Origin: a phage | Length of the DNA stretch: 46,457 nt | Assembly (NCBI GenBank): GCA_026328835.1 | Contig: GCA_026328835.1_4850.1 | Direction: 5' to 3' (one strand) | In this document: in pieces, positions 2,151 to 46,173 of the stretch | How the letters are laid out: every line of letters begins with the position of its first letter | Position numbering within the stretch: the stretch's first letter is position 1 | Program-made: the position numbers and the translations under genes | The notes under the pieces: model-generated | What the model was told of the DNA's origin: nothing | The model's database searches: none | Seen by the model: the letters and a program-made list of their open reading frames with translations, nothing else

Positions 2151-2430
2151 TAACAACCTCCTCAGCAGCTGTTTCAACGATGCGCACCAACGAACACTCA
2201 AGGTTCGGCGCATTATAATTGCCAGCCAGAAACAGCACACTACCAGTGCTAATCAGCACCTGCTTTGCATTTGCCTGTGACAGATTCTGCACGATGAATT
2301 GCGCTGTCTCTGTGCCGATTTTCAGCACTGCGCTGCCGTCGCTGTTCAGTGATACCAGTTGCGCGGATGTGTCAGCAATATTGGTAAAGTTCGCGTTTCG
2401 TTGCGCGATTGTGATGTCGCAGAATGACAT
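2122..2430 (-). CDS. hypothetical protein
   Basis: 102-aa ORF in co-directional minus-strand run. Confidence 0.45.
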   Translation of the reverse strand: MSFCDITIAQRNANFTNIADTSAQLVSLNSDGSAVLKIGTETAQFIVQNLSQANAKQVLISTGSVLFLAGNYNAPNLECSLVRIVETAAEEVVNEPATLPAE

Positions 2431-2732
2431 TATTTAATCTCTCCATTCAGTTCATTAACAATTAACGTTGCATAGCCAGCAATATCTTTCCAGCTGTCAT
2501 CATAAGTCGGGTCGCCATTCAGAATACGCCCAATCTTGTGCTGAATCATGTCGAGCGCCTCGCGCTGGCTTGGTGTCAGATTGTTCCACCCATCCACTTC
2601 GCGCATGACGGTTTTCAGTTCCTGCATGATTTCAGCGCCATCTTTGAATTTGCCGTATCGGCTACCGCGCGCGGTGATGAGTTGCTCTGTTGCGTCAGTA
2701 TGGCGCCTATCGCCCGTGATTTGTGAACTCAT
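2430..2732 (-). CDS. hypothetical protein
   Basis: 100-aa ORF; 1-nt overlap with downstream gene. Confidence 0.45.
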   Translation of the reverse strand: MSSQITGDRRHTDATEQLITARGSRYGKFKDGAEIMQELKTVMREVDGWNNLTPSQREALDMIQHKIGRILNGDPTYDDSWKDIAGYATLIVNELNGEIK

Positions 2733-3219
2733 TGTGATGTATTCTCCTGAATTCTTTTATTTTTGCTTCCGCTTCTCTTATGTCAGAAAAGTAACCAACT
2801 GTGAATCTTTTGCCATTTACTCCAACTCTTGCATGCCACTTGTTGTGCGATGAACTCCAGTTAACCCCCTTGATACCGCTAGTGTTGTTTTTGTTCATTG
2901 CTTTGTTGTGGCTATTCTCAAATTTGCTGGCCTCCCTTAAATTGCACGCCCTGTTGTCATTGCGAATTCCATTGATGTGATCAATCATTTCACTTGCTGA
3001 TGAGCCATGAATACATATCCATGCCAGTCTGTGAGCAAGAAAAGCCCTACCGCAAAGAATTATTTGCACATATCCATCTGGCTTTAAGTAGCCTGCAACG
3101 CTCCCTTTTTCTGCAATCCTATTCCTTGTCTTTAGCCATTTAAATTCCCCAGTTAGTGGATTGTAGTCAAGGTAACTCAATATAAACTCCCTACTCGGCT
3201 CCTCCCTCCTATGTCTCAT
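2707..3219 (-). CDS. HNH homing endonuclease with AP2-like DNA-binding domain
   Basis: HRLAW...DHINGIRNDNR..NLR HNH motif plus NTSGIKGVNW...W.A AP2-like segment. Confidence 0.8.
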   Translation of the reverse strand: MRHRREEPSREFILSYLDYNPLTGEFKWLKTRNRIAEKGSVAGYLKPDGYVQIILCGRAFLAHRLAWICIHGSSASEMIDHINGIRNDNRACNLREASKFENSHNKAMNKNNTSGIKGVNWSSSHNKWHARVGVNGKRFTVGYFSDIREAEAKIKEFRRIHHNEFTNHGR

Positions 3220-3422
3220 TTCTCAACCTCTTTCATCGTCACCAGATTATTTTCATCAACATTGAAGTTGTCCCTGATAAGGTTATACATCTCATCCTTC
3301 GGCATATCAGCCAGCGCCACATAGCAACGGGCAAAGTAGCGAACATCACGGAGTGTCAGCGGCTGACGCTTCTCCACAATGCTGGTGATAATGTCCATCG
3401 GCTCGCGTCGTGGTCTTGGCAT
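3216..3422 (-). CDS. hypothetical protein
   Basis: ORF track start 3458 is a TTG codon; ATG at 3422 preceded by AAGGAG preferred (MPRPRREPMDII...). Confidence 0.45.
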   Translation of the reverse strand: MPRPRREPMDIITSIVEKRQPLTLRDVRYFARCYVALADMPKDEMYNLIRDNFNVDENNLVTMKEVEK

Positions 3423-3522
3423 ATTTACTACTCCTTCTCGAAAATTATTGTTGACCAATCCACATCACTTAGTCAATACTTATTGACGTAGATTGTACCA
3501 CAACGGAAAAGGTGATGTGGAA

Positions 3523-14792: not shown

Positions 14793-15311
14793 ACTGGTTT
14801 AAGCATTGCCAGCGTGCTTTCTTAATATCCAGTCCCGTAACCCATACATACCCCTACATATGATTGCGATAATGCTGGATATTAAGTGTTGTTGTGGCCG
14901 GTGCTGATCTCCGGCTTGCGGTTATTTCAGACTCTCACGGGCGTTTAATTGCCCCGCCGAACAGCTCTTTTCCGCAATAGCTGCAATGTCTTTCGCGCAT
15001 CAGCCTGCGCATTCACCACAACGGCAAGAACACTGGCTAACCACGCGCGCAGACTCTTCAGGATTATCTGCTCAATGCTCTTACCTGTTGTGTTCCCTGA
15101 CTTATTAATCACACCTCAGGGACGCAGTGCGCCGAATTTGTTTACAAGGAATCGGAATACCTTGCTGACTTACAGGCTATTACGCCGCCATCAGAACAAC
15201 ATCATCGTTTGCATTTGTCTTTGTGGTCAGTTTCTAAAAAGTCCGCAAAGTCGCTCACGAAAACTATCTGAAATACAATCTACACCACAAAATAATCACT
15301 GTCAACACCTG

Positions 15312-16855: not shown

Positions 16856-17572
16856 ATGCAAAACATGAGCAATCGCACGCCACTAACAGAAATCGGAGAG
16901 ATGCGCATCTCGCTTTCCGACAGGAGTTTTTTCTTCAAGCCATCATTCCGCGCCATGAATGAAATCGGCACACCAAAAGAAATCGTTGAGGTGTGCGCCA
17001 GACTCAATGGCATTGATTATGTTGCGCCATTACAGCACGTCGAATATCTGCCATTTGGCGCTCAAATGCAGGTCATGAAGACTATCAGCAAGCCAGTGTA
17101 TGGTCGGCACGTACTGAGTGCCGCCTATATCGTCATGCAGTCATGCTGTGAAGATGATATTTCTGTTCTGATTGGTGGATGGAAGCCAACACCGCGCGGT
17201 GTGCGATATGTTCCCGGCATCATGCCAGTGAACGACATTATTATTATTGCGCGCAACCTGATGCAGCACGGCGTCATTGGCAAATCCCCACTCAAGGTGC
17301 CTGAACGTCTGGAAGAACAGGGTAAGAAAACCACAAACGAGTTTCATGCGTCGCAATACATCATCTCGGCGCGCACGCATTTCGACATGACGCGCGATGA
17401 GGCAGAAAACCTGTCTATGACAGAGTTTCAGATGATGATTAAGAATAAATATCCAGAGCCGAAAGGGTTAACGAAAGAAGAGCGCGCAGCCGAGTACGAT
17501 CAGGCCAAAGCAGACCGTGAACGCATGAAGGCACTGGCTGAACGCAAAGCGAAAAAAGCGAGGAATACATAA
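16856..17572 (+). CDS. tail assembly chaperone
   Basis: 238-aa ORF immediately before tape measure gene; basic C-terminus. Confidence 0.5.
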   Translation: MQNMSNRTPLTEIGEMRISLSDRSFFFKPSFRAMNEIGTPKEIVEVCARLNGIDYVAPLQHVEYLPFGAQMQVMKTISKPVYGRHVLSAAYIVMQSCCEDDISVLIGGWKPTPRGVRYVPGIMPVNDIIIIARNLMQHGVIGKSPLKVPERLEEQGKKTTNEFHASQYIISARTHFDMTRDEAENLSMTEFQMMIKNKYPEPKGLTKEERAAEYDQAKADRERMKALAERKAKKARNT

Positions 17573-20058
17573 TGGCTGAAGAAGTCGGCGGAATTGTCTA
17601 TGAAGTCGGGATGGATGTATCAGGACTGACGACTGGCGGGCAAAAGGTAAACAAGGTTCTTCAGGAGATTGAGAAATCAATTGATGAGTCAATTGCTGGG
17701 ATAAATAAACTTGACACGGGACTAAAAAACACCGCATCGACAGTTGAGAAATCTGGCAGGAGTTTCTCCAGTTTAAATAACGCCATGCGACAGGGTGGCT
17801 ACCAGATTCAGGACTTTGTAGTTCAGGTGCAGAGTGGACAATCAGCACTTGTTGCTTTAAGTCAACAAGGTAGCCAGTTATTAAGCGTCTTTGGTTCTGG
17901 TGGTGCGGTTGCCGGTGCATTGTTAACCATCGGTACGGTAATCGTTGGCTCATTAATTGCCGGCATGGATAACGCAACCGTTTCCACAAAGGCGCTCACC
18001 GCCGCACAGCAGAGACTTGCTGACATATTCCAGCTTTCTGCTAATGGGGTTGTCGTTCTCTCTGACAAGTTTGCAACACTGGCTAAACAGTCAGAAAACG
18101 CCGCCAGAGCACAGTTAACAATGGCTCTGATTGATGCAAACAACATCATCAAGGCTTCAGTGCAGGGCGTCAATGAGCTTGGCGACGCACTTGGCTCGTG
18201 GAAAGCACCACTATCCGCCGCCATAAGTCAACTTGACACGCTGAAAGCAAGAGGTATCGATGTAAACGCAGCGCTAAAGAACCTTGGCGGGACATATGAG
18301 GGTAATATTCTCGGACTAAACCAACTCAATCAGGTGGTAAAAAGTCTGGCTGATGAGTTTGGCATAAGCGCAGATGACGCCCTGAAACTGGTTGAAGCTC
18401 TGGCAGCCGTAAGAAAAAATGCCAATCCTGAAACAATAGCGGAGTTGCGCGACCTGACTGTTGACCTTAGTCAGAAATATGGATATGCAAACAAGTCACT
18501 ATCTGAGCTTACTGGCAAGGTTGGCGAGTATTCAATTTCGGCAGATCAGGCAGCAGAATCTACAAAGCTGGCTACCGATATGCTGAACGGGCACAAAGTA
18601 GCTTCAGAAGAGGATGCGAGAGCCACTGAAGAAAACACGAAAAGGCTTCAGGCTTACATCCAGTCGATTAAGGAAGAAGGTGAAACCATCGCCTTTACAG
18701 CAAGACAAAAGGCACTGTACAGAGCTGAACAGCTTGGGGCAAGTGATGCAGACAAGCAAACAATCAACTCGTCATTCGACAAGATAGAGGCATACAAGGC
18801 TGAGCTTGCTGCAAAAAAAGAGCAGGAAAAGCAAGACAAAAAACGCATAGCTGCGTCAACAAAGCAAGCCAACCTTGAAGAGTCGGTAGCACAAAAGCTG
18901 GAGAAATTACGCCAGCAAACCATGCTTAATGCCACATCTACCAGCGAACTCTCCCGCGAGCAAGCAATCCTCAACGCACAGCAATCGCTTGGCAAAGCTG
19001 CAACTCAGGAGCAGATAAAACTGGCTGGCGAGTACGCTGCGAAGATTTGGGACCAGAAGAATGCACTGAAGGAGCAAGCGGCAGCGGAGAAGGAAAGGCA
19101 GCGTATAGAGAAATCATATCAGGGGTTGCGCGCCATTGCGTCGCCAACCACTGGCATTGACAGTGAATACCAGCAACGTATGGCTGACCTTGACGCCTAC
19201 GCCGCAGCATATCCGCAGAAAATCACGGAGATTGAACAAACTCGCGCAGCAATTGAAGCACAATATCGCCAGCAGAGAATGGACGCCATGTGGGCTGAAT
19301 GGCAGCAACAAAGCCTCGGTGCGCAGCTTTTCGGCACTGCTCTTGATTCAGCGATGAGCGCGGCATCAAACAGCATCACCGGATTGCTGACGGGCACAAT
19401 GAGCGTGCAGGATGCAATGCGCAGCCTAGGCTCTACGGTGCTTAACTCTCTGGTAAATAGTTTCGTCGAAATGGGCGTTCAGTGGGTTAAATCTGCAGTT
19501 ATGGGACAGACTGCGCAGGTTGCGGCTACGGCAACCACAACAGCAGCGCAAACGGCTGGACTGGCAACCACAACAGCAGCATCCACTGCGGCGGCAGCAA
19601 CCACTACGGCAGCATGGACTCCCGCAGCAATCGTCGCATCAATCGGTTCATTCGGTGGTGCAGCAGCAATTGGTGTAGGTGCCGTTCTCGGAGCGCTGGC
19701 GATGGGTATCGCTGGCAAGCGAAAAAATGGTGGGCCTGTTAGTGCCGGAAGTATGTACGAAGTGGGCGAGGGAAACGCCCCAGAAATATTCCAGGCCAGC
19801 ACAGGCAGGCAATACATGATACCTGGCAACTCAGGAAAGGTTATCAGCAATAAGGATATTTCCGGTGGAGTGGGTGGTGTTGTTGTTTATAATAATGTTT
19901 ACAATAATTCAAGCAATGCTAGCGCAACAAGCAGAGCCACTGATAACGGTGATGGTTCGATAACTATTGAGACATTTATATCCGATATGAATGAAGGCGG
20001 ACCGATGAGCCAATCTATCTCAAGAAACTTTAATACCAACAGGAGGGCAACAGAGTAA
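17572..20058 (+). CDS. tail tape measure protein
   Basis: 828 aa; long helical region; Ala/Thr-rich hydrophobic segment; RBS GAGGAA. Confidence 0.85.
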   Translation: MAEEVGGIVYEVGMDVSGLTTGGQKVNKVLQEIEKSIDESIAGINKLDTGLKNTASTVEKSGRSFSSLNNAMRQGGYQIQDFVVQVQSGQSALVALSQQGSQLLSVFGSGGAVAGALLTIGTVIVGSLIAGMDNATVSTKALTAAQQRLADIFQLSANGVVVLSDKFATLAKQSENAARAQLTMALIDANNIIKASVQGVNELGDALGSWKAPLSAAISQLDTLKARGIDVNAALKNLGGTYEGNILGLNQLNQVVKSLADEFGISADDALKLVEALAAVRKNANPETIAELRDLTVDLSQKYGYANKSLSELTGKVGEYSISADQAAESTKLATDMLNGHKVASEEDARATEENTKRLQAYIQSIKEEGETIAFTARQKALYRAEQLGASDADKQTINSSFDKIEAYKAELAAKKEQEKQDKKRIAASTKQANLEESVAQKLEKLRQQTMLNATSTSELSREQAILNAQQSLGKAATQEQIKLAGEYAAKIWDQKNALKEQAAAEKERQRIEKSYQGLRAIASPTTGIDSEYQQRMADLDAYAAAYPQKITEIEQTRAAIEAQYRQQRMDAMWAEWQQQSLGAQLFGTALDSAMSAASNSITGLLTGTMSVQDAMRSLGSTVLNSLVNSFVEMGVQWVKSAVMGQTAQVAATATTTAAQTAGLATTTAASTAAAATTTAAWTPAAIVASIGSFGGAAAIGVGAVLGALAMGIAGKRKNGGPVSAGSMYEVGEGNAPEIFQASTGRQYMIPGNSGKVISNKDISGGVGGVVVYNNVYNNSSNASATSRATDNGDGSITIETFISDMNEGGPMSQSISRNFNTNRRATE

Positions 20059-20061
20059 AAA

Positions 20062-20085
20062 ATAAGCCCCTCACGGGGCTTTGTT
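20062..20085. terminator. rho-independent terminator
   Basis: aagcccc-tcac-ggggctt stem-loop. Confidence 0.6.
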
Positions 20086-20949
20086 CATTATCTCGTCCAT
20101 TAATTCAGGTGAATATTTAAGCCACTCCGTTGCGCCATCAAACCCTGTCAGTCCTGCACTTTCGTATTTCTTATGATAGTACCTTTCAATAGCAAGAGCA
20201 TCACAACCTATTGTCTTTATTTTTGATATGACGTGAAAATCAAATGGTGTGTTTTTCTTTAACTGACAAACTCTACGCCTAAGATTGTTAGTGATCCCAA
20301 CTTTAATTTCGTTTCCTGAGAACAAGAAGTAAACAAAGGCCTTTTCTTTCAGCTTGAAACCTCCCTTGGAGCAATGAGGGCAACCTTGCCCTTGGAGATG
20401 CTTATCTGGCGTCTTTGTAAACCACCCATGCTCTGGGCATTTTATTCTCATTTTTGTTGTCACATTAATGTATGACAAGCAATCATAATGGTACTTATTC
20501 CCATGAATTATAATGGCATCTTTCTTGAACTTATTGAACCCCTTAGTTACAGATGCTGTAATTTTCTCCCTTGCGCAAACAGGGCAACCACACCCATTAA
20601 GGTGGCTGTTGGCCTCCTGAGAAAACTCAAAGTTATGTACTTTGCATATTATTTTTACTTTCTTGTGACCACCTTTGTATTCAACTTTAGAATAATCATA
20701 AGAGTCACCATGCTTTGCAATCGCATCAGCCACAAATTCACGCGTTGTTTTCTTCTTATTTCCAGAGCAAGAAGGGCATCCAGCTCCATTCAAATGAGAG
20801 TTTGGAGTCTGCTCAAATAGCCCATGCTTACGGCATGTTATCTTTACCTTTATCGAACTTTTTATATAAGAAACAGCATCATAAAGATATTTATCACCAT
20901 GAATATCTCTGGCTTTTATAATAAATTCTTCAGCGGTTGACTTGCTCAT
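20071..20949 (-). CDS. putative nuclease: three tandem Cys/His zinc-ribbon repeats plus T5orf172 (GIY-YIG-like) C-terminal domain
   Basis: three ~65-aa repeats HG.KY.Y...C..HG.F...P..HL.G.GCP.C; C-terminal VYFLF..NEIKVGIT.NL.RR...EWL. Confidence 0.55.
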   Translation of the reverse strand: MSKSTAEEFIIKARDIHGDKYLYDAVSYIKSSIKVKITCRKHGLFEQTPNSHLNGAGCPSCSGNKKKTTREFVADAIAKHGDSYDYSKVEYKGGHKKVKIICKVHNFEFSQEANSHLNGCGCPVCAREKITASVTKGFNKFKKDAIIIHGNKYHYDCLSYINVTTKMRIKCPEHGWFTKTPDKHLQGQGCPHCSKGGFKLKEKAFVYFLFSGNEIKVGITNNLRRRVCQLKKNTPFDFHVISKIKTIGCDALAIERYYHKKYESAGLTGFDGATEWLKYSPELMDEIMNKAP

Positions 20950-21086
20950 GATTGAATCCTCGGTTAAAGGTGGTTTGAAGTGATGCAGCAGGCGATAACC
21001 AATCGCTTTTCATCTGGCCGGACTAGCTGCACTTATGATTGTACCATCAGCGTGCTAAAATACAACAACACAAGATGGAGACTATC

Positions 21087-22451
21087 ATGGCCATAATACC
21101 CTATCCAAGCTGGTTGCCTTTAGCTCAGAGGGCCAGCAAGAATTTGACATTTCAAACCCCATTCAGACAGGATGTTCCTGCTGTTGGCGCACCTATTTTT
21201 CAAAAATTAACGACTGATATAAGTTCGCAGTGGTCACTGACGTGGAAGTTTACACTGGCGGAAGAACGTGCATTTATCCAGTGGTTGCGCAGCTCACGCT
21301 ACCTGAATAAGTGCAATAACTGGTTTACCATGATGATTGACCTCGGCGGCAGCGGATTGCAGGAGCAGACGCTGCATTTTACCGATTATCCAGTGCAAAC
21401 CAGTATCGATGGTGGCGTTGTTACATGGACTGGTAACGTTATTGCTAAAAAACTCAACAACACGATGGATGAGTTTGATGATGTCCTGGTCGAACTGGAT
21501 TACAGATGGTACAGCTGGCTGGATGAAGTTGTTAACCGTGAACTTCCGCAAGTATATATGACACCAATATTGCATATGCCAATTAACATGCTGTCATCCA
21601 CGCTTGATAGCCGCATTGTGTATGATGGACCACAGGTTTATTACATCAACAGAAACGGTAATCTTGTGCAGTCCGCCGTCAATGAATGGCCTCTTACGTT
21701 TATTGACGGGGTCGCTGTCGGGCGTGTACCGCCGGAAAATGTCCGCGTTAATTTCGCAGTAAATAACGCTGACATATCCAGCGCCGCATGGGTGAAGATT
21801 AATATGTCTGTTTCTGAATATGACACCATCACCGGAGGGTATGCCCTAACCCCGACCACAAAAAATGGCACGCACAATTTAAACCAAACTGTGACAAACA
21901 CGACGCACCAGGTAGGTAGTTTGGTTACAGTTAGTTACATGGTCAAGGCTAACGGCTATGATTTCTTCCGCGTAAGAGTAGCTGACAGTTTAGGCTTCCT
22001 GGGGGATGTAGTAATAAACTCTACTTCAGGGGAGGTTGTTAGCGGCTATGGTGTGTCAACAGTACAAAATCTTGGAGGTGGACTGTTTCGGGTTACCAAA
22101 ACAGTAACAATACGGGTGGGTGGAACAACAAGTATACTTATGCAGTGTTTTGTGGACGCCGACGGGTTGAAGTCAACCTATCCTGGAGACGGGGTCAGCG
22201 GTGCGGTTATTTTGCTGCCACAAATAGAAAAATCTTCATTCGCTACGTCACCAATAGTAACTGACGCATCGCCATCTACACGCCCGGCGGCATCCGCAAA
22301 AGTAGCAATGAACGGCGCAACAAGCATCGACATTGCCTATTCAGACGGCTCCATAGTGAACGTTCCGGCGGTTGACGATTATGCAACCATCCCACAGGCT
22401 GATTCAGCGTGGGGAAGTAAGTACATCACAACAATAAAATTCAACGTCTGA
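21087..22451 (+). CDS. minor tail protein (distal tail protein-like with C-terminal extension)
   Basis: ATG 21087 with GGAG RBS preferred; position between tape measure and L-like gene. Confidence 0.45.
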   Translation: MAIIPYPSWLPLAQRASKNLTFQTPFRQDVPAVGAPIFQKLTTDISSQWSLTWKFTLAEERAFIQWLRSSRYLNKCNNWFTMMIDLGGSGLQEQTLHFTDYPVQTSIDGGVVTWTGNVIAKKLNNTMDEFDDVLVELDYRWYSWLDEVVNRELPQVYMTPILHMPINMLSSTLDSRIVYDGPQVYYINRNGNLVQSAVNEWPLTFIDGVAVGRVPPENVRVNFAVNNADISSAAWVKINMSVSEYDTITGGYALTPTTKNGTHNLNQTVTNTTHQVGSLVTVSYMVKANGYDFFRVRVADSLGFLGDVVINSTSGEVVSGYGVSTVQNLGGGLFRVTKTVTIRVGGTTSILMQCFVDADGLKSTYPGDGVSGAVILLPQIEKSSFATSPIVTDASPSTRPAASAKVAMNGATSIDIAYSDGSIVNVPAVDDYATIPQADSAWGSKYITTIKFNV

Positions 22452-30711: not shown

Positions 30712-32617
30712 AATCTTTTCTGTGTATTATGTCACGGCCTTTATCGTTAATACGATGTGTGATGCGTTTTGGCGCTTTAATCAACCCCGCATACATCATG
30801 AACTGCTTGGCGTTCTGGCATTTCAGGATTTTCCCAGCTATTGATTTATCATCAAGGTGAGGGAAGATGGCCTTTGCCTTGAACATGTTTTTCATGTGGG
30901 TTGCTCCGCCGTAAGGGTAGAAAACCTCGTTAGCCCAGCCTTCTTTGCCATCACAACGATTAATCCAGTAGCGATATAAAATTCCCTCTCCATCCTTCGT
31001 CAACTGGACTTTGAAGTCAATAACATCAGCCCATTCGTTGTCGGTATACGCACGCTCATTCAGTGCCGCATTTGGGTCTCGCAAAACATGATCGCAATGT
31101 CGGCAATAGCGCGCCGTAGGGTCGTTTTTAGTTCCGCAACCATCATCAAAAATACGGATGCCATGCTTATCGAAGCCGCAACGGATGTAGCTGAAAAATT
31201 CTTCGCAGCGACCATCTGGAGATAGTGCATCTTTGCCAATACAGCGGCGAGCATATGGGCTGTTCATTGTTCCACATTTTGGACACGGAACCTGTTCGCC
31301 ACTGCGTTTTGAACGTTGCGCTTCAGCCTCTTCCAGAATAGGGTCTTCATACAGCTGACCAAGCTCAAACATCGTGCCTGAGAAATCCAGAACCAGATGG
31401 TCTTCTTTATGATACCCGGCATCAATTTGCTCTTTCTTCAGCAGGCGCATTCCGCGACCAAGCAACTGAACGAGAAGGGTGAGTGACATTATTTTTCGTA
31501 ATATGACGCTTACATCCCATAATGGGATATTAACGCCAGTTGTAAGCGCGGCGATCTGGAATGTGTATTTTATTTTGCCAGTGTACGCATCCCTCAGGGC
31601 TTTGCGTCTTGCTTTTTGCCCCATATCTTCAGTAACAATCGCGTAGCTGCCTTCAGGAAGGTATTTAGCAGCCTCCAAGCAATGCTTCTTGCCTGCGCAG
31701 GTAATTAATACCCCATTTCTGTCTTTTGTAAGCTCCATCACTTTGAGCATGATTTTCTGTGTAAGAGTTCCTTGTTCAAGTATTTCCTCCTGCATCTGCT
31801 TGAGCTGCTCTGCGGTGAAGTCCTGCGTCCCGTCAACATCTGAGCCATGGAAGTTATGCAGGTCGTATTGCAAGTCATCAACATCATGAAGACCAAAGAT
31901 TGTTGGAACAACAAATCCACGATCTACCATGTACTTTGTGTCAATGTTTATTATTTCATTTTTCCAGTACGCGCCTTTCATTGATTCAGTACCACGGAAT
32001 GGACTTCCGGTGAATCCAATTGTTATCATCTCATGACCATATTTTTCCTTGCATCGCCTGTTAAGCTCAGTAAGTATTACGCCATATTGTGTTGTTGGAT
32101 TCTCACTAATAATGTCCTGCCATGGCACTTGGTGCCCTTCATCACAAAGGCAAAATCTAGGGGTAAAGTCACTCAACCCACCTTTCTTAACGTCACCGTT
32201 TGATTCATCTTTTTTATCAAAAAGTGCGTTAACTATTGTTCCTTCAGTGCCGCATATAATAGGGTATGCTGTACTTTTCCTACCAAGAGATGCGCTATAA
32301 AGAGAGTTTTTTACACCACACTCCCACATCATTTCAGCATTCTGCTCAGCTATCTCGCCCTGCCTTGAGATTACAAGACCCTCCCACCCCATATCCTGAA
32401 ATCTACTGCAAAGCATTGAAATCATCACGGTCTTTCCTGATGAAACAGACGCTGTAACATAGCTTGGCTCTGGTTTCTTTCCAAAATTACGAATAACCTC
32501 AGCGCACTTTGCGTAAACAAGCCATTGGTAATCATATGGCTCTATGGAACCTAATTTTATTGATTTCTTTAATTTATCTATATCAATTTCTGAAATCATC
32601 TTGTCTATTTTATGCAT
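30683..32617 (-). CDS. superfamily 2 DNA helicase with C-terminal zinc ribbons
   Basis: Walker A SVSSGKT; DEGH box (LCDEGHQV); QLLGRGMR arginine finger; CPKCG and CRHC pairs. Confidence 0.85.
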   Translation of the reverse strand: MHKIDKMISEIDIDKLKKSIKLGSIEPYDYQWLVYAKCAEVIRNFGKKPEPSYVTASVSSGKTVMISMLCSRFQDMGWEGLVISRQGEIAEQNAEMMWECGVKNSLYSASLGRKSTAYPIICGTEGTIVNALFDKKDESNGDVKKGGLSDFTPRFCLCDEGHQVPWQDIISENPTTQYGVILTELNRRCKEKYGHEMITIGFTGSPFRGTESMKGAYWKNEIINIDTKYMVDRGFVVPTIFGLHDVDDLQYDLHNFHGSDVDGTQDFTAEQLKQMQEEILEQGTLTQKIMLKVMELTKDRNGVLITCAGKKHCLEAAKYLPEGSYAIVTEDMGQKARRKALRDAYTGKIKYTFQIAALTTGVNIPLWDVSVILRKIMSLTLLVQLLGRGMRLLKKEQIDAGYHKEDHLVLDFSGTMFELGQLYEDPILEEAEAQRSKRSGEQVPCPKCGTMNSPYARRCIGKDALSPDGRCEEFFSYIRCGFDKHGIRIFDDGCGTKNDPTARYCRHCDHVLRDPNAALNERAYTDNEWADVIDFKVQLTKDGEGILYRYWINRCDGKEGWANEVFYPYGGATHMKNMFKAKAIFPHLDDKSIAGKILKCQNAKQFMMYAGLIKAPKRITHRINDKGRDIIHRKDFAGEQSEAA

Positions 32618-33222
32618 TATTTTACCCTACCAAATTCACCATGAAGACTTGATGATGCTTTTGCATACGCTTTATGTGCATCCTCAGGGGTATTAAAATA
32701 ACCAATAACTTTCTTTTTACCTCTAACCCAAATCTGAGCAACCCACCGTTTCTCCCTTTTGAACCAACTAACACCTTTGTATCCGCTAGTGTTATTTGAT
32801 GATAAGCCTTTATTCCATTTGTTTTGACTGCAATCAGCCAACCTGAGATTTTCTATCCTGTTATCGTTCTTAATTGTATTGATGTGATCAATGTCCATAG
32901 CTCCAGGGTCTTGCTGTTTGCATATGGCCCATACAATTCTATGTGCTTTATAATAAACACCATCAATCATCACAAGCCTGTAATTCATTTTGTCAACCTT
33001 ATTGTCAGCAGGTTTCCCCGGATACCGTGAATTCCATGTTTTGTGATATGGCGTTAATTCATCTCTCCTTTTCCAATACAGGCGTCCATTGACAACCTCT
33101 AACCTTGATGTCACGTAATCAACATCAATTTTTAGCACCTTTCTTTTTTTCTCTAAAACTTTTGAGTCGGCACCCTGAGCAACAGAACTCAGCCCTTGCT
33201 GTTCCATAGAATTCCCCCCCAC
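32617..33222 (-). CDS. HNH homing endonuclease with AP2-like domain
   Basis: HRIVW...DHINTIKNDNRIENLR plus NTSGYKGVSW...W.A. Confidence 0.8.
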   Translation of the reverse strand: MGGNSMEQQGLSSVAQGADSKVLEKKRKVLKIDVDYVTSRLEVVNGRLYWKRRDELTPYHKTWNSRYPGKPADNKVDKMNYRLVMIDGVYYKAHRIVWAICKQQDPGAMDIDHINTIKNDNRIENLRLADCSQNKWNKGLSSNNTSGYKGVSWFKREKRWVAQIWVRGKKKVIGYFNTPEDAHKAYAKASSSLHGEFGRVK

Positions 33223-33360
33223 AGTTTTTGCACTTTTTCAGAGTGATAGCCATTTCTTATCCTCGATATTAAACTCAGTTGCGTTTCATGTCAATAACGC
33301 TTGTGCGTTTCATGCGAGTAAATTACAATGATTCTACATCAACGTCAACAGGAAGATTTT

Positions 33361-39924: not shown

Positions 39925-40368
39925 ATGGCTAATCCAAACCCTGTCATGAAATTTTCCTCTGAGTACCAGCCTGCTGGCAGAGGATTAAGCTACAGAAACA
40001 GGCTTATTGAAGCATTAAAGCGATGTGGGCTTGGCGAAGAGGAGTTTCTTGACGCATTCATCAGGACGTCAATCAGGATGACCGAGGAAAACCCGACTCA
40101 GGGTGTGCAGATGCTGAAGGAGATATTCCTGCGCATCAGTCCCGTGCAGAAAAGTATGGCGCCTCCGGTTAATTTTAAATACCGCAAAGATGCCACGCCG
40201 GTAGAGCAGATAGAGGATGTCATTCAATCTGTTTCCAGCGGTGAACTCCCAATTGACGTGGCGTCTCAGGTTGTGTCTATGATTAAGGTTGGTCTTGACG
40301 TGAAAGAGTTAACCGAACTCGCAGCGCGCCTTGAGCGACTGGAGAAATTACTGGAGCAGCAACAATAA
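39925..40368 (+). CDS. putative terminase small subunit
   Basis: 147 aa directly upstream of terminase large subunit (interrupted by HNH gene). Confidence 0.5.
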   Translation: MANPNPVMKFSSEYQPAGRGLSYRNRLIEALKRCGLGEEEFLDAFIRTSIRMTEENPTQGVQMLKEIFLRISPVQKSMAPPVNFKYRKDATPVEQIEDVIQSVSSGELPIDVASQVVSMIKVGLDVKELTELAARLERLEKLLEQQQ

Positions 40369-40374
40369 CTCATT

Positions 40375-40380
40375 TATAAT
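40375..40380 (+). promoter_or_regulatory. -10 hexamer TATAAT preceding HNH leader
   Basis: TATAAT 7 nt upstream of structured element. Confidence 0.35.
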
Positions 40381-40387
40381 AATCAAT

Positions 40388-40433
40388 GCGGCAAAGGGTA
40401 GCTCCCTGCCCGGATTGGTCTCCGGGCTGCCGC
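40388..40433 (+). ncRNA. conserved structured 5' leader element (copy A)
   Basis: outer stem gcggca/tgccgc enclosing hairpins aggg-tagct-ccct and gcccgga-ttggtc-tccgggc; near-identical copy at 45501-45546. Confidence 0.5.
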
Positions 40434-40471
40434 ATCCAACCAATAGACCGCCTGTAACCGAGGATTCAATC

Positions 40472-40990
40472 ATGTCATCATTAAAAGAGTTGCCACTCAC
40501 TCAAGAAAGACTTAAACATCTCCTGCATTACAATCCAGACACCGGTGTTTTCACGTGGTTAAGTAAGCCAAGCAGAAGAATAAATTCTGGAAGCATTGCT
40601 GGCAGGATAAAACCTAAGAAGGGGTATGTGGAAATAGGAATAAGTGGAAGGATCTATCTTGCTCATAGGCTGGCATGGCTTTACATCTATGGAACTTGGC
40701 CTAAAGAACAAGTTGACCACATTAATGGCATTCGTAACGATAACAGGATTAAGAATTTAAGGCTGGCCACAACATCACAGAATCAGTGGAACAAGAAGAT
40801 GCAAAAAAACAACACATCTGGAATTAAGGGGGTTAGCTGGGATAATCAACGGGGAAAATGGATAGCCCAATGCTGGTTATTTGGCAAGTATCACAAAATA
40901 GGTAGGTTTTCATCAATTGATGATGCTGAACGTGCAATAAGACAGTTCAGGGAGAAACATCAGGGGGAATTTTGCAATCATGGCGCGTAA
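40472..40990 (+). CDS. HNH homing endonuclease with AP2-like domain
   Basis: start MSSLKEL at 40472; HRLAW...DHINGIRNDNRIKNLR; NTSGIKGVSW. Confidence 0.8.
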   Translation: MSSLKELPLTQERLKHLLHYNPDTGVFTWLSKPSRRINSGSIAGRIKPKKGYVEIGISGRIYLAHRLAWLYIYGTWPKEQVDHINGIRNDNRIKNLRLATTSQNQWNKKMQKNNTSGIKGVSWDNQRGKWIAQCWLFGKYHKIGRFSSIDDAERAIRQFREKHQGEFCNHGA

Positions 40991-42404
40991 AAGACTCTCA
41001 AGCGTTGCGATAGAAAAACTTGAGCAAGCAGTAGGCAATTCAACTGCAAAGCCAGAGTCCGCTGTTTTCGGCCTTGTCGATAAGATATTGTCTGACGGTA
41101 CACCAAATGTGGTTAAGTGCCTTAAAATGACAGCCACTGGCGTGTCAGAAACAGACGAGAAGCCAACAATATTAATCCCTGAGCGAATGGAGCTGCTGCT
41201 TTATCCTCGCCGTTTCAAAGTGTTCTATGGTGGCAGGGGAAGCGGAAAGACGGCTAACGTTGTTTCTTACCTTATAGAAAAGGCAAGATTTCGCAACAGC
41301 CGCGTCGGATGCTTCCGTGAGATACAGAACTCAATCAAAGAATCAAGCTATGCCGAGCTGGTCGATGAGATAAACAGGAAGGGGCGCACTCAGGAATATC
41401 GTTGCGTGGATGGCGAGATAACACACCACACAACGAGATCAAAGTTTGTTTTTCGTGGCCTTTGGCGAAACATAACCGCAATCAAGGGCATGGCTGGACT
41501 TACAGATGTGTTCTGCGAAGAATCCGAAAACATCAGTCAGGTGTCATGGGATACGTTAATCCCAACGGTGCGCGCCTCTGGTTCTGAAATTATTATTGTT
41601 TTTAACCCAAATAAAGAGACGGACCCGACGTGGACTAACTTTGTTGAGCCTTACATCGGCAAAATGGTTGACGGCATATATCAGGATGATGACATCGTTG
41701 TTGTTAATGTTAACTACGTCCACAACCCGTGGTTCACGGAAGAACTTAAACAGCACATGAACCAGATGAAGGCTGTGGATTATGATCGCTACCTTTGGGT
41801 GTATGAAGGTAAATTCAACAAACGCAGTGACGAACAGGTATTCGGCGGCAAATGGCGCATTGATAACTTTGAGGTCAAGCCTGAATGGCACGGCCCATAC
41901 TTCGGGATGGACTTCGGGTTCAGTACGGACCCCACTGCAATGGTTGAGGTTTACATCGAAGAACTGCCTGGTGGACGGCGCAACATTTATATTAATCGCG
42001 AGTATGGCAAGGTTGGACTTGAGATTACCGATACGCCAGCCGCGATGGAGCAATCATTCCCGATGGCTAAGCGCGCACGATGGTATGCCGACTGCGCTCG
42101 ACCTGAAACTATCAGCCACATCAAGCGTTCTGGATTTGACATTCACCCATGCACGAAATGGCCTGGGAGCGTTGAGGATGGCGTAACATGGTTGCGCGGC
42201 TGCGACAGTATCATCATTCATGACAGGTGCAAGGAAATGCAAAATGAGGCTGCAATGTACAGCTACAAGGTTGATAAGCTGACTGGCAACGTGCTGACTG
42301 ATATTGTCGATGCATTCAACCACTTCTGGGATGCTGTTCGCTATGCGCTTAATGACCATATCGTCCAGCGCGGTAGTGGAATGCTAATCCGGCGCAGGCG
42401 TTAA
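40980..42404 (+). CDS. terminase large subunit
   Basis: 474 aa; Walker A YGGRGSGKT; C-terminal nuclease-like region. Confidence 0.9.
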   Translation: MARKRLSSVAIEKLEQAVGNSTAKPESAVFGLVDKILSDGTPNVVKCLKMTATGVSETDEKPTILIPERMELLLYPRRFKVFYGGRGSGKTANVVSYLIEKARFRNSRVGCFREIQNSIKESSYAELVDEINRKGRTQEYRCVDGEITHHTTRSKFVFRGLWRNITAIKGMAGLTDVFCEESENISQVSWDTLIPTVRASGSEIIIVFNPNKETDPTWTNFVEPYIGKMVDGIYQDDDIVVVNVNYVHNPWFTEELKQHMNQMKAVDYDRYLWVYEGKFNKRSDEQVFGGKWRIDNFEVKPEWHGPYFGMDFGFSTDPTAMVEVYIEELPGGRRNIYINREYGKVGLEITDTPAAMEQSFPMAKRARWYADCARPETISHIKRSGFDIHPCTKWPGSVEDGVTWLRGCDSIIIHDRCKEMQNEAAMYSYKVDKLTGNVLTDIVDAFNHFWDAVRYALNDHIVQRGSGMLIRRRR

Positions 42405-43141: not shown

Positions 43142-45485
<2,344 letters not shown>

Positions 45486-45488
<3 letters not shown>

Positions 45489-45494
45489 TATAAT
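45486..45494 (+). promoter_or_regulatory. extended -10 promoter element TGATATAAT preceding HNH leader
   Basis: 7 nt upstream of structured element copy B. Confidence 0.45.
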
Positions 45495-45500
45495 TTACTT

Positions 45501-45546
45501 GCAGCAAAGGGTAGCTCCCTGCCCGGATTGGTCTCCGGGCTGCTGC
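45501..45546 (+). ncRNA. conserved structured 5' leader element (copy B)
   Basis: identical inner hairpins to copy A; outer stem gcagca/tgctgc carries compensatory change. Confidence 0.5.
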
Positions 45547-45585
45547 ATCCAATCAATAGACCATCCTTATGACCGAGGACTCAAA

Positions 45586-46137
45586 ATGAAATCAATAAAC
45601 CGCAACAAAATGCCTGCAATGGCTCGCCTTTCACATCTATTCATTATTTCCAATGATGGAACAATCAAGCGCAGAATTGCTGCTGGCAATAGAGCGGCAG
45701 GCAGCAGCGCAGAAAGGAGTTTGTGTGGAAGTGACTATACATGCATAACTGTTGATGGCGTAAGATACCTAACCCATAGGGTTATTTGGTTCTTCTTTAC
45801 TGGTGAAGAGCCTGATTATCTTGATCACATAAATAGAAACAAAAAGGACAACAGACTATGCAATTTGAGGCCAGTATCCGCCACAGGAAACAGAAGTAAC
45901 ACTGATTTGATGAACAACAACACAACTGGATATATTGGTGTTTATTGGTATTACTACAAAGGAACTCCTAGATGGAGAGCTGCTTGCAACGATAAACATC
46001 TTGGGTATTACAGTTCGCTTGTCTCGGCAGTAAAGGCATATAATCGTTATGTGACAAGTATTTATGGTGATGAGGCATTAGCAAAGGTTGAGCATAACAA
46101 GAGGATGATCAAAGAATCTTTTGGTATTGAACTGTAG
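45586..46137 (+). CDS. HNH homing endonuclease with AP2-like domain
   Basis: start MKSINRNK at 45586; HRVIW...DHINRNKKDNRLCNLR; NTTGYIGVYW. Confidence 0.75.
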   Translation: MKSINRNKMPAMARLSHLFIISNDGTIKRRIAAGNRAAGSSAERSLCGSDYTCITVDGVRYLTHRVIWFFFTGEEPDYLDHINRNKKDNRLCNLRPVSATGNRSNTDLMNNNTTGYIGVYWYYYKGTPRWRAACNDKHLGYYSSLVSAVKAYNRYVTSIYGDEALAKVEHNKRMIKESFGIEL

Positions 46138-46142
46138 CAAAC

Positions 46143-46173
46143 AAAAAGCCCTCTAAGTGAGGGCTTTGCTTTA
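46143..46173. terminator. bidirectional rho-independent terminator
   Basis: aaagccctc-taagt-gagggcttt between convergent genes. Confidence 0.7.

Follow-up and report, generated by a model that had tools for sequence, protein, structure and literature searches.

Proteins that join an HNH nuclease to an AP2 domain reportedly form a family in phages, cyanobacteria and protists, which Magnani et al. are said to have described in 2004. For phages, Barth, Dunham and Seed (2023, PMC10448857) describe as the IPA-HNH class those homing endonuclease genes that combine HNH_3 and AP2 domains; these genes are multi-copy, stand beside terminase, capsid and replisome genes and mark exchange boundaries. Here we analyse four such genes, HNH1 to HNH4, in a stretch of 46,457 nucleotides (nt) of phage DNA (NCBI GenBank assembly GCA_026328835.1, contig GCA_026328835.1_4850.1), which we call the window. 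A preliminary description had presented them as four AP2-HNH paralogs at classic insertion points, two of them with a shared structured leader. The finding is correct, and the four genes are a known, common kind of element. We consider it probable that they are independently acquired IPA-HNH homing genes, and that HNH3, HNH4 and a further nuclease gene of the T5orf172 type are cassettes of promoter element, leader and open reading frame (ORF) with leader-controlled translation.

The genes of the window compare closely with the IPA-HNH class. They have an N-terminal HNH_3 and a C-terminal AP2 domain, are free-standing, occur in several copies near essential genes of the same types and lie at exchange boundaries. 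There is no difference of substance; the genes are new members in a Skatevirus-like phage, and the AP2 domain of the HNH4 lineage is too diverged for Pfam. The match to I-HmuI (PDB 1U3E), an intron-encoded HNH nicking endonuclease of Bacillus phage SPO1, spans the nuclease half only. The I-HmuI gene sits inside a group I intron, whereas the window genes are free-standing and the C-terminal DNA-binding module of their proteins is AP2. T4-type homing genes such as I-TevI and mobE are said, after Gibb and Edgell, to be translationally controlled by hairpins that hide the ribosome-binding site. The window cassettes resemble these systems in being selfish nuclease genes that bring along a promoter element and an RNA structure that could mask the ribosome-binding site. 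They differ in that the RNA is a conserved three-way junction with a choice of two partners for its loop, and in that it belongs to a shared family instead of being a gene-specific hairpin.

Homing genes of the T5orf172/MUG113 type with CapR, DUF723 or DUF4379-type zinc-finger repeats have also been described (PMC10448857), in a paper that does not mention promoters or leaders. The closest described RNA is int-alpA (RF02996; Weinberg et al. 2017, PMC5737381), an orphan candidate small RNA (sRNA) that Rfam files under the type 'Gene; sRNA'. The only paper that we found naming the motif simply lists it. In the main text of the discovery paper (PMC5737381), int-alpA is not discussed, and neither a role as leader nor a complementarity between its loop and ribosome-binding sites was found there or in the paper that lists the motif.

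Genome setting and domain architecture

The 46.5-kb window is 85–91% identical in nucleotide sequence to siphophages of Salmonella, E. coli and Klebsiella. The closest phages are Bas77, swi2, VSt472 and Skate, from the genus Skatevirus and its neighbours. Because these matches extend over most of its length, the window appears to be roughly one whole Skatevirus-like siphophage genome. ORFs are present at all four intervals given in the preliminary description: 2707–3219, 32617–33222, 40472–40990 and 45586–46137. HNH1 (2707..3219, minus strand) has 170 amino acids, HNH2 (32617..33207, minus strand) has 196 when read from ATG 33207, HNH3 (40472..40990, plus strand) has 172 and HNH4 (45586..46137, plus strand) has 183. 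For HNH2 the ORF itself stands, but the start at GTG 33222 is uncertain, with ATG 33207 or a GTG near 33138 as other candidates. The orthologue in phage pYD38-A is annotated with 173 amino acids, about 23 codons shorter than the ORF from ATG 33207.

The preliminary description depended on a domain search finding both motifs, and it holds because domain, profile and fold comparisons confirm HNH and AP2 in each of the four genes. HNH_3 (PF13392) is above the Pfam gathering score of 24.8 bits in all four, with 39.1, 40.1, 63.8 and 40.5 bits. The Pfam search reported no match to PF01844 for any of HNH1 to HNH4. All four proteins match phrog_99, 'HNH endonuclease', with E values from 3.5e-44 to 1.6e-73, and a tblastn search of the window with them returns exactly four copies, with no fragments or remnants. 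Pairwise identity among the four is 31–50%, and HNH1 and HNH3 share 50% over their full length. Invariant in the alignment are D-H, N, N-L-R and a distal N, which include the active-site residues of I-HmuI (D-H and the Asn residues). The genes possess the D-H general base, the metal-binding Asn residues and the beta-beta-alpha-metal fold, and the profile of the four proteins matches I-HmuI 1U3E with an E value of 9.5e-7.

For the C-terminal module, the same profile matches the AP2/ERF structures WRI1 (7WQ5, E 8e-4) and TEM1 (7ET4, E 0.013). A comparison by hhalign aligns the C-terminus of HNH4 with the AP2 region of the other three proteins at a probability of 93% (E 3e-7). In the AlphaFold2 model of HNH4 (predicted local distance difference test, pLDDT, 87.1), residues 119–179 are predicted to form three strands and a helix, the arrangement of a three-stranded sheet on a helix seen in solved AP2/ERF domains. 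HNH4 belongs to a small lineage, with relatives in 14 protein clusters at E<=1e-10 among 5.8 billion sequences; in these clusters Pfam detects only HNH_3, except in the most distant cluster or clusters.

Distribution among related phages

The preliminary description had read the four genes as a sign of active homing endonuclease traffic and had proposed presence/absence mapping in related genomes. This mapping shows that the insertion points are polymorphic, as such traffic predicts. Each of the four genes has orthologues of 92–99% identity in one to four other phages, in the same slot wherever the location could be read, while most relatives have either nothing or another nuclease gene at each slot. 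HNH1 has orthologues (96–98%) only in EcoIv28_Lewi, ZCEC08 and ST1UNAM, and its neighbours are the same in ST1UNAM. HNH2 has them (92%) only in Vibrio phage pYD38-A and Aeromonas phage pIS4-A, with an identical slot in pYD38-A. HNH3 is found at 96% in one IMG/VR contig only (L004), its best match in a GenBank phage being 62%. Among GenBank phages, HNH4 has orthologues (93–99%) only in ST46, S.Kent 1-2-1, ECO95 1-6-1 and Segz_1, and those of Segz_1 and ECO95 1-6-1 are at the same site after the head morphogenesis gene. Phage ECO111 5-P carries none of the four genes. In Bas77 all four slots are empty and two HNH genes lie elsewhere, and of the five nuclease genes of Skate most are located at other sites. 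Close relatives thus show the same-site presence/absence polymorphism that is expected of homing endonuclease genes.

Identity to relatives also shifts abruptly at the sites. In one contig (L005) TerS is 78–83% identical and TerL 95%; in another (L022) the head morphogenesis gene is 80% identical and the sequence downstream 98%. Identity jumps at nuclease genes are also described by Barth et al. (PMC10448857).

Since the orthologues in other phages are far closer than the three companions within the genome, and since the slots are patchily occupied, the four genes appear to have been independently acquired as free-standing homing endonuclease genes, with no duplication inside the genome. Of the term 'paralogs', the shared HNH_3 and AP2 architecture remains; the notion of duplicates within one genome does not, given 92–99% identity to orthologues elsewhere versus 31–50% inside.

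Anatomy of the insertion sites

The neighbouring genes bear out the location of HNH4 after the head morphogenesis gene and of HNH2 beside the helicase. The HNH4 cassette comprises 660 nt (45477–46136), with a 12-nt direct repeat at its ends (GCAAACAAGAAG at 45465–76 and GCAAACAAAAAG at 46137–48). It supplies a new C-terminus, ANKKKTK followed by the stop codon, to the head morphogenesis gene, and this stop (TGA) lies within the extended −10 element of the cassette, TGATATAAT. The original end of the head morphogenesis gene (ANKKPSK and stop) and the terminator at 46145–46167 are still present downstream of the cassette; the intact 3' end reads CAATCAGCAAACAAAAAGCCC (CAATCAGCAAACAAAAAGCCCTCTAAG). 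Sites without HNH4 are also without the leader; the leader travels with the ORF.

Just past the HNH4 cassette, at 46145–46167, lies the bidirectional terminator-like hairpin AAAGCCCTCTAAGTGAGGGCTTT, which in relatives free of the cassette overlaps the head morphogenesis stop codon. One relative of HNH4, protein P0005, has an N-terminal extension of 45 residues (...QRVAPCPDWSPGC...) that is a translated leader and a gene-calling artefact, so the same leader precedes this relative too.

HNH3 lies between the terminase subunits, as had been noted, with the qualification that the upstream subunit is a probable one: the gene at 39925–40368 matches phrog_9747, whose function is unannotated, and is a small terminase (TerS) by position only. 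In the window it ends early (LEQQQ and stop) and is followed by a −10 box, leader A and HNH3. In relatives without HNH3, among them SB28, the TerS stop overlaps the TerL start (...CAGAATGGCTCGTAA), or a small membrane ORF occupies the gap. The stop of HNH3 falls 8 nt inside TerL (40980–42404), so that the type of stop-start overlap found between TerS and TerL at empty sites is recreated. The HNH3 ORF is framed by two copies of the 8-nt direct repeat CAATCATG, one at its own start (40467–40474) and one at the TerL start (40975–40982). Recombination across these repeats would remove the ORF exactly and place the leader before TerL.

A TerL of a different kind is present in Segz_1 (L071, 41700–44312) and in three further contigs (L100, L150 and L168). 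It has 839 amino acids and carries after residue 87 an in-frame insertion of about 1.1 kb, which in Segz_1 begins GGRGCLAIGT... and is intein-like. This type of TerL is directly preceded by an int-alpA leader of the IME207 type, with no HNH gene between. The solo leader in Segz_1-like contigs may be a remnant after loss of the nuclease ORF.

HNH1 has an HNH_3 and an AP2-like domain and no leader. Its start codon and the stop codon of the gene upstream (3216–3458) overlap in ATGA, and it appears to be translationally coupled to that gene. The segment 2699–3233 of the window stands in place of 256 nt in the HNH-less phage ECO111 5-P, where a longer open frame runs through these 256 nt and encodes the N-terminal part of the downstream gene. 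In the window this downstream gene (2430..2732, minus strand) retains the C-terminal 100 amino acids of a phrog_17775 protein of about 163, matching profile positions 74–163 of 163; its N-terminus was lost to the HNH1 segment. The end of HNH1 was also considered as a footprint of a TerL start, given the resemblance of its last residues (NHGR and stop) to those of HNH3 (NHGA and stop). We rejected this, as the 3' end of HNH1, AAT CAC GGG CGA TAG, does not include an ATG and the resemblance is weak. Judged from the overlap of HNH3 with TerL, the replacement C-terminus at HNH4 and the coupling of HNH1, the insertions appear to spare host genes.

HNH2, with HNH_3 and AP2 domains, is inserted between the helicase and primase genes, which are divergent. 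Skate, Segz_1, VR6602 and PSH-1 have different HNH genes in this slot, and in Bas77 it is empty. The 5' end of HNH2 is overlapped by an ORF of 43 codons (33122..33253, minus strand; MAITLKKCKNCGG...CCSGC...) with its own consensus-like promoter and ribosome-binding site, for which Pfam gives weak hints of a zinc ribbon only. HNH2 is in the +1 frame relative to this zinc-ribbon ORF, and the same +1 offset is found in all six distinct instances. The frame change from zinc ribbon to HNH falls in a Lys/A-rich stretch, which in the window contains A7. The pair could be a programmed or transcriptional frameshift fusion, or two overlapping genes. Zinc-ribbon ORFs of 41–50 codons (MAIT.KKC..C...CSG.C) with a strong promoter and ribosome-binding site ahead of the HNH gene of the slot are also seen at loci of Skate, PSH-1, Bas77, Segz_1 and VR6602 (L002, L068, L070, L071 and L072).

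Leaders A, B and C

A stretch of 38 nt is identical at 40393–40430 and 45506–45543; the window contains two matches, compared with zero in 100 shuffles. These stretches belong to leaders A and B. Leader A (40375..40471, plus strand) begins with TATAAT at 40375–80 and has its three-way-junction core at 40388–40433. It consists of the closing helix P1 (GCGGC/GCCGC), a first hairpin GGGUAGCUCCC and a second hairpin GCCCGGA-UUGGUC-UCCGGGC. The tail contains two sites complementary to the loop of the second hairpin, AGACC and AACCGAGGA, the latter at the ribosome-binding site. Leader B (45489..45585, plus strand) begins with the extended −10 TGATATAAT, has its core at 45501–45546 and carries the tail sites AGACC and GACCGAGGA. 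The 46-nt cores of A and B differ by a single compensatory pair, G-C to A-U in P1. In Skate, VSt472, KFS-SE2 and others, the leader is 96–100% identical to A although the HNH gene behind it shares only about 60% identity with HNH3, and leaders of other occupants of the slot between TerS and TerL have the same closing helix and different interiors.

That only the two plus-strand copies carry the structured leader is right for the near-identical pair A and B, but a divergent member, leader C, lies on the minus strand before a T5orf172 gene. Leader C (20950..21046, minus strand) has the extended −10 TGGTACAAT at 21046–21038 and its core at 21030–20985. It is a canonical three-way junction of the int-alpA type, with junctions UA/GAAAA/CU, the loop UUGGUUA and the tail sites AAACCA and UAACCGAGGA. 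Rfam RF02996 matches it at 20968–21033 with 26.6 bits, under the gathering score of 35.8, and with an E value of 7.7e-4 in a local scan or 0.18 over the whole window. The last 20 nt of leaders A and C are identical. All three leaders have in common the loop core UUGGU and the proximal site ACCGAGGA, and the predicted duplexes between loop and site range from −4.6 to −8.0 kcal/mol. The first hairpin and P1 of leaders A and B are shared with some canonical int-alpA members. By sequence and predicted fold, leaders A and B appear to be derived relatives of int-alpA RNA (RF02996).

Compared with int-alpA as described, the likeness lies in the three-way junction of P1 and two hairpins and, for leader C, in the UA/GAAAA/CU junctions, with sister leaders scoring up to 49.7 bits. 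The difference is that the RNA here appears as a 5' leader near the promoter of nuclease cassettes, its loop being complementary to the ribosome-binding site, and that C scores below threshold and A and B are undetected.

The gene after leader C is a fifth putative homing endonuclease gene (20071..20949, minus strand) of 292 amino acids, with treble-clef zinc fingers and a C-terminal MUG113/T5orf172 domain, which is GIY-YIG-related. DUF4379 (PF14311) matches three stretches with 41.5 bits, above its cut-off. PF13455 scores 38.9 bits (cut-off 22.3) and PF10544 33.0 bits (cut-off 20), both placing the protein in the T5orf172/MUG113 group, and the match to the endonuclease family phrog_681 has an E value of 1.7e-69. 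This is the same architecture as in the homing genes with zinc-finger repeats reported before. The gene runs antisense within the tail module, with the tape measure gene (17572–20058) on one side and the gene at 21039–22451 on the other, and is missing at this site in Bas77. It stands outside the four-gene set, having escaped the preliminary description, and has only the leader family in common with HNH3 and HNH4.

A scan of the window found no tRNA genes. Weak tmRNA-like Rfam matches at 15131–15303 are regarded as chance.

The int-alpA leader family

Viral contigs were searched with a leader pattern and the matches filtered locally by stricter patterns, which gave at least 104 instances and at least 54 distinct cores; a probable false positive (L189) was excluded from the alignment. 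Rfam assigns the family to RF02996 with 29.7–49.7 bits against the threshold of 35.8, at least four loci lying above it. A score of 42.6 bits is reached by the IME207-type leader, found in IME207 at the TerS–HNH site. Over 48 distinct cores, 85.7% of the cells of the three-way junction are paired, compared with 65.4% in shuffles, and the covariation score is 0.515, compared with 0.154 in shuffles and 0.07–0.14 in slid controls.

A −10 hexamer TAnnnT starts 12–15 nt before the core, that is P1, in 56 of 70 distinct upstream contexts (27 of the 56 with TGn), and such hexamers are almost absent at other offsets. The leader RNA probably starts at P1; in the window this would place transcript 5' ends at about 40386–40388, 45499–45501 and, on the minus strand, 21030–21033. 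The second-hairpin loop varies greatly between leaders but remains complementary to two distinct stretches of the same leader's tail. Across 33 loop types, the longest tail stretch complementary to the loop has a mean length of 5.48 nt, whereas 1000 permutations give 3.44 +/- 0.32, with a maximum of 4.39. For the second site the mean is 4.27 nt (permutations 1.59 +/- 0.30, maximum 2.55), and two sites are present in 30 of the 33 types. From the end of the proximal site to the start codon the median distance is 6 nt, and in 29 of 30 cases this site overlaps or directly adjoins a Shine-Dalgarno-like tetramer. Taken together, the junction structure, the complementarity of the loop to the ribosome-binding site and the upstream −10 box suggest that the leader lies close to the promoter and controls translation.

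In 94 of the 104 instances listed, the core is followed by an ORF start at a distance of up to about 130 nt, usually 25–45 nt. Counted as distinct proteins, the genes after the leader comprise at least 24 HNH nucleases and at least 19 T5orf172 nucleases, besides a primase-like protein of about 940 amino acids (at least 15), TerL (at least 4), helicases and others. PSH-1 (L068) has four leaders with three loop specificities, before two HNH and two T5orf172 genes.

Two other identities of the leader were considered and rejected. Several GenBank records start or end inside it, as a genome end or cos site would; we dropped this idea because the leader of Skate spans the record ends, which suggests that this record was opened there by convention. 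A hammerhead or other self-cleaving ribozyme came into question for one type with CUGAUGAG and CGAAA. These motifs are not conserved elsewhere, the order of junction lengths does not fit, and there was no match to an Rfam ribozyme.

Discussion

By analogy with characterised homing endonucleases, the AP2 domain and the N-terminal region would, in a mixed infection, bind the allele of a related phage that is without the gene. The I-HmuI-like HNH domain would then nick or cut near the bound site, and recombinational repair would copy the nuclease gene together with flanking markers into the cut genome. HNH3, HNH4 and the T5orf172 gene would be self-contained cassettes of −10 element, int-alpA-type leader and ORF. 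As their anatomy suggests, the leader would start the cassette transcript and set the timing and amount of nuclease translation, with the loop of the second hairpin toggling between a distal site and a site that covers the ribosome-binding site. For int-alpA at large we propose, tentatively and with somewhat more doubt than confidence, a widespread phage 5' leader that runs from the transcription start and acts as a two-state translational switch, with at least 30 co-evolving types of loop and site, used as a portable control of unrelated nuclease cassettes.

True paralogy, in which the four genes were duplicated and diverged inside this phage lineage and are no longer mobile, would account for one architecture and one PHROG family in all four and for the full-length identity of 50% between HNH1 and HNH3. 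It is hardly credible beside orthologues in other phages that are so much closer than the copies within the genome, beside the patchy distribution among close relatives and beside catalytic residues that are intact. A specific role has to be considered for HNH3, which might be no selfish gene at all but a packaging accessory of the terminase. HNH proteins of the HK97 gp74 type are reportedly able to stimulate cos cleavage, a finding ascribed to Kala et al. in 2014; HNH3 lies immediately upstream of TerL and overlaps it, and an HNH gene is found at this position in 16 related contigs. A gp74-type protein would be a conserved partner of the terminase. Of 42 related contigs retrieved via TerL, however, one could not be judged, and 25 of the 41 evaluable ones have no gene there, TerS and TerL overlapping directly in some. 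Moreover, the occupants belong to at least four lineages with 45–96% identity to HNH3 (96% in one contig, about 60%, 54% and 47% in others), and the HNH_3 and AP2 domains of HNH3 are those of the three copies elsewhere in the genome, with no reported match to PF01844. We therefore regard the packaging role as very improbable.

The leader, too, can be read in other ways. If it were a trans-acting sRNA that represses all transcripts with matching sites, as its Rfam class implies, the two target-like sites per transcript would be explained, and the shared UUGGU loop core and proximal site of the window leaders would permit cross-regulation. There is a possible precedent in the C4 antisense RNA of phages P1 and P7, which Citron and Schuster are said to have shown in 1990 to be cut from a leader and to block a downstream ribosome-binding site. 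But no terminator or known processing site follows the 3' strand of P1, an ORF starts shortly after the core in nearly all listed instances, and the four leaders of PSH-1, with their three loop types, each fit their own tail, for which intramolecular pairing is the simplest explanation; trans action is unlikely. A 5' stem-loop that protects the messenger RNA, or a DNA element such as a promoter or recombination hotspot, would need no translational control. The position of P1, which would be at the very 5' end of the transcript, fits a stabiliser. Near-identical leaders before diverged ORFs could be recombination joints, and in Segz_1-like contigs a leader stands alone before TerL. The helices, however, contain G-U pairs that would be A-C mismatches in the antisense transcript, and the complementarity of loop and tail covaries far above permutation, which neither a stabiliser nor a DNA site needs. 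Such a role is distinctly improbable.

Several observations weigh against our reading of independently acquired homing genes with leader-controlled translation. We infer cleavage, target sites and biased inheritance, and the different HNH lineages in one slot could be due partly to old vertical divergence and loss. The region of HNH1 is hypervariable, and the HNH1 segment substitutes sequence instead of interrupting a clean target. In Pfam, AP2 (PF00847) is under its gathering score of 33.3 bits in HNH2 (32.8), HNH3 (28.9) and HNH1 (21.6), and HNH4 has no AP2 match even at E<=1. RF02996 does not match leader A, nor leader B at E<=5; both keep P1, the first hairpin and the three-way fold, but have junctions AAA/U/U instead of UA/GAAAA/CU. 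The promoter assignment draws on positional enrichment of the −10 match, because a simple two-hexamer sigma-70 scan flagged none of the leader promoters. The core pattern used in the family search fixed five P1 pairs, which carry no evidence of pairing, and the ORF finder demanded a Shine-Dalgarno-like motif. Nuclease cassettes often carry the leader, but it is not confined to them, because primase-like, helicase and TerL genes also follow it, and the filing of int-alpA as an sRNA leaves room for trans action.

New here are the precise layout of the insertions, a fifth nuclease gene and the tie of the leader to an orphan RNA family with a testable mechanism. The four genes illustrate how selfish nucleases populate and reshuffle small siphophage genomes while the essential genes next to them are apparently spared. 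The leader is the more useful lead, as it offers a concrete, testable role for an uncharacterised Rfam family, at known sites in cultivable phages of Salmonella, E. coli and Klebsiella.

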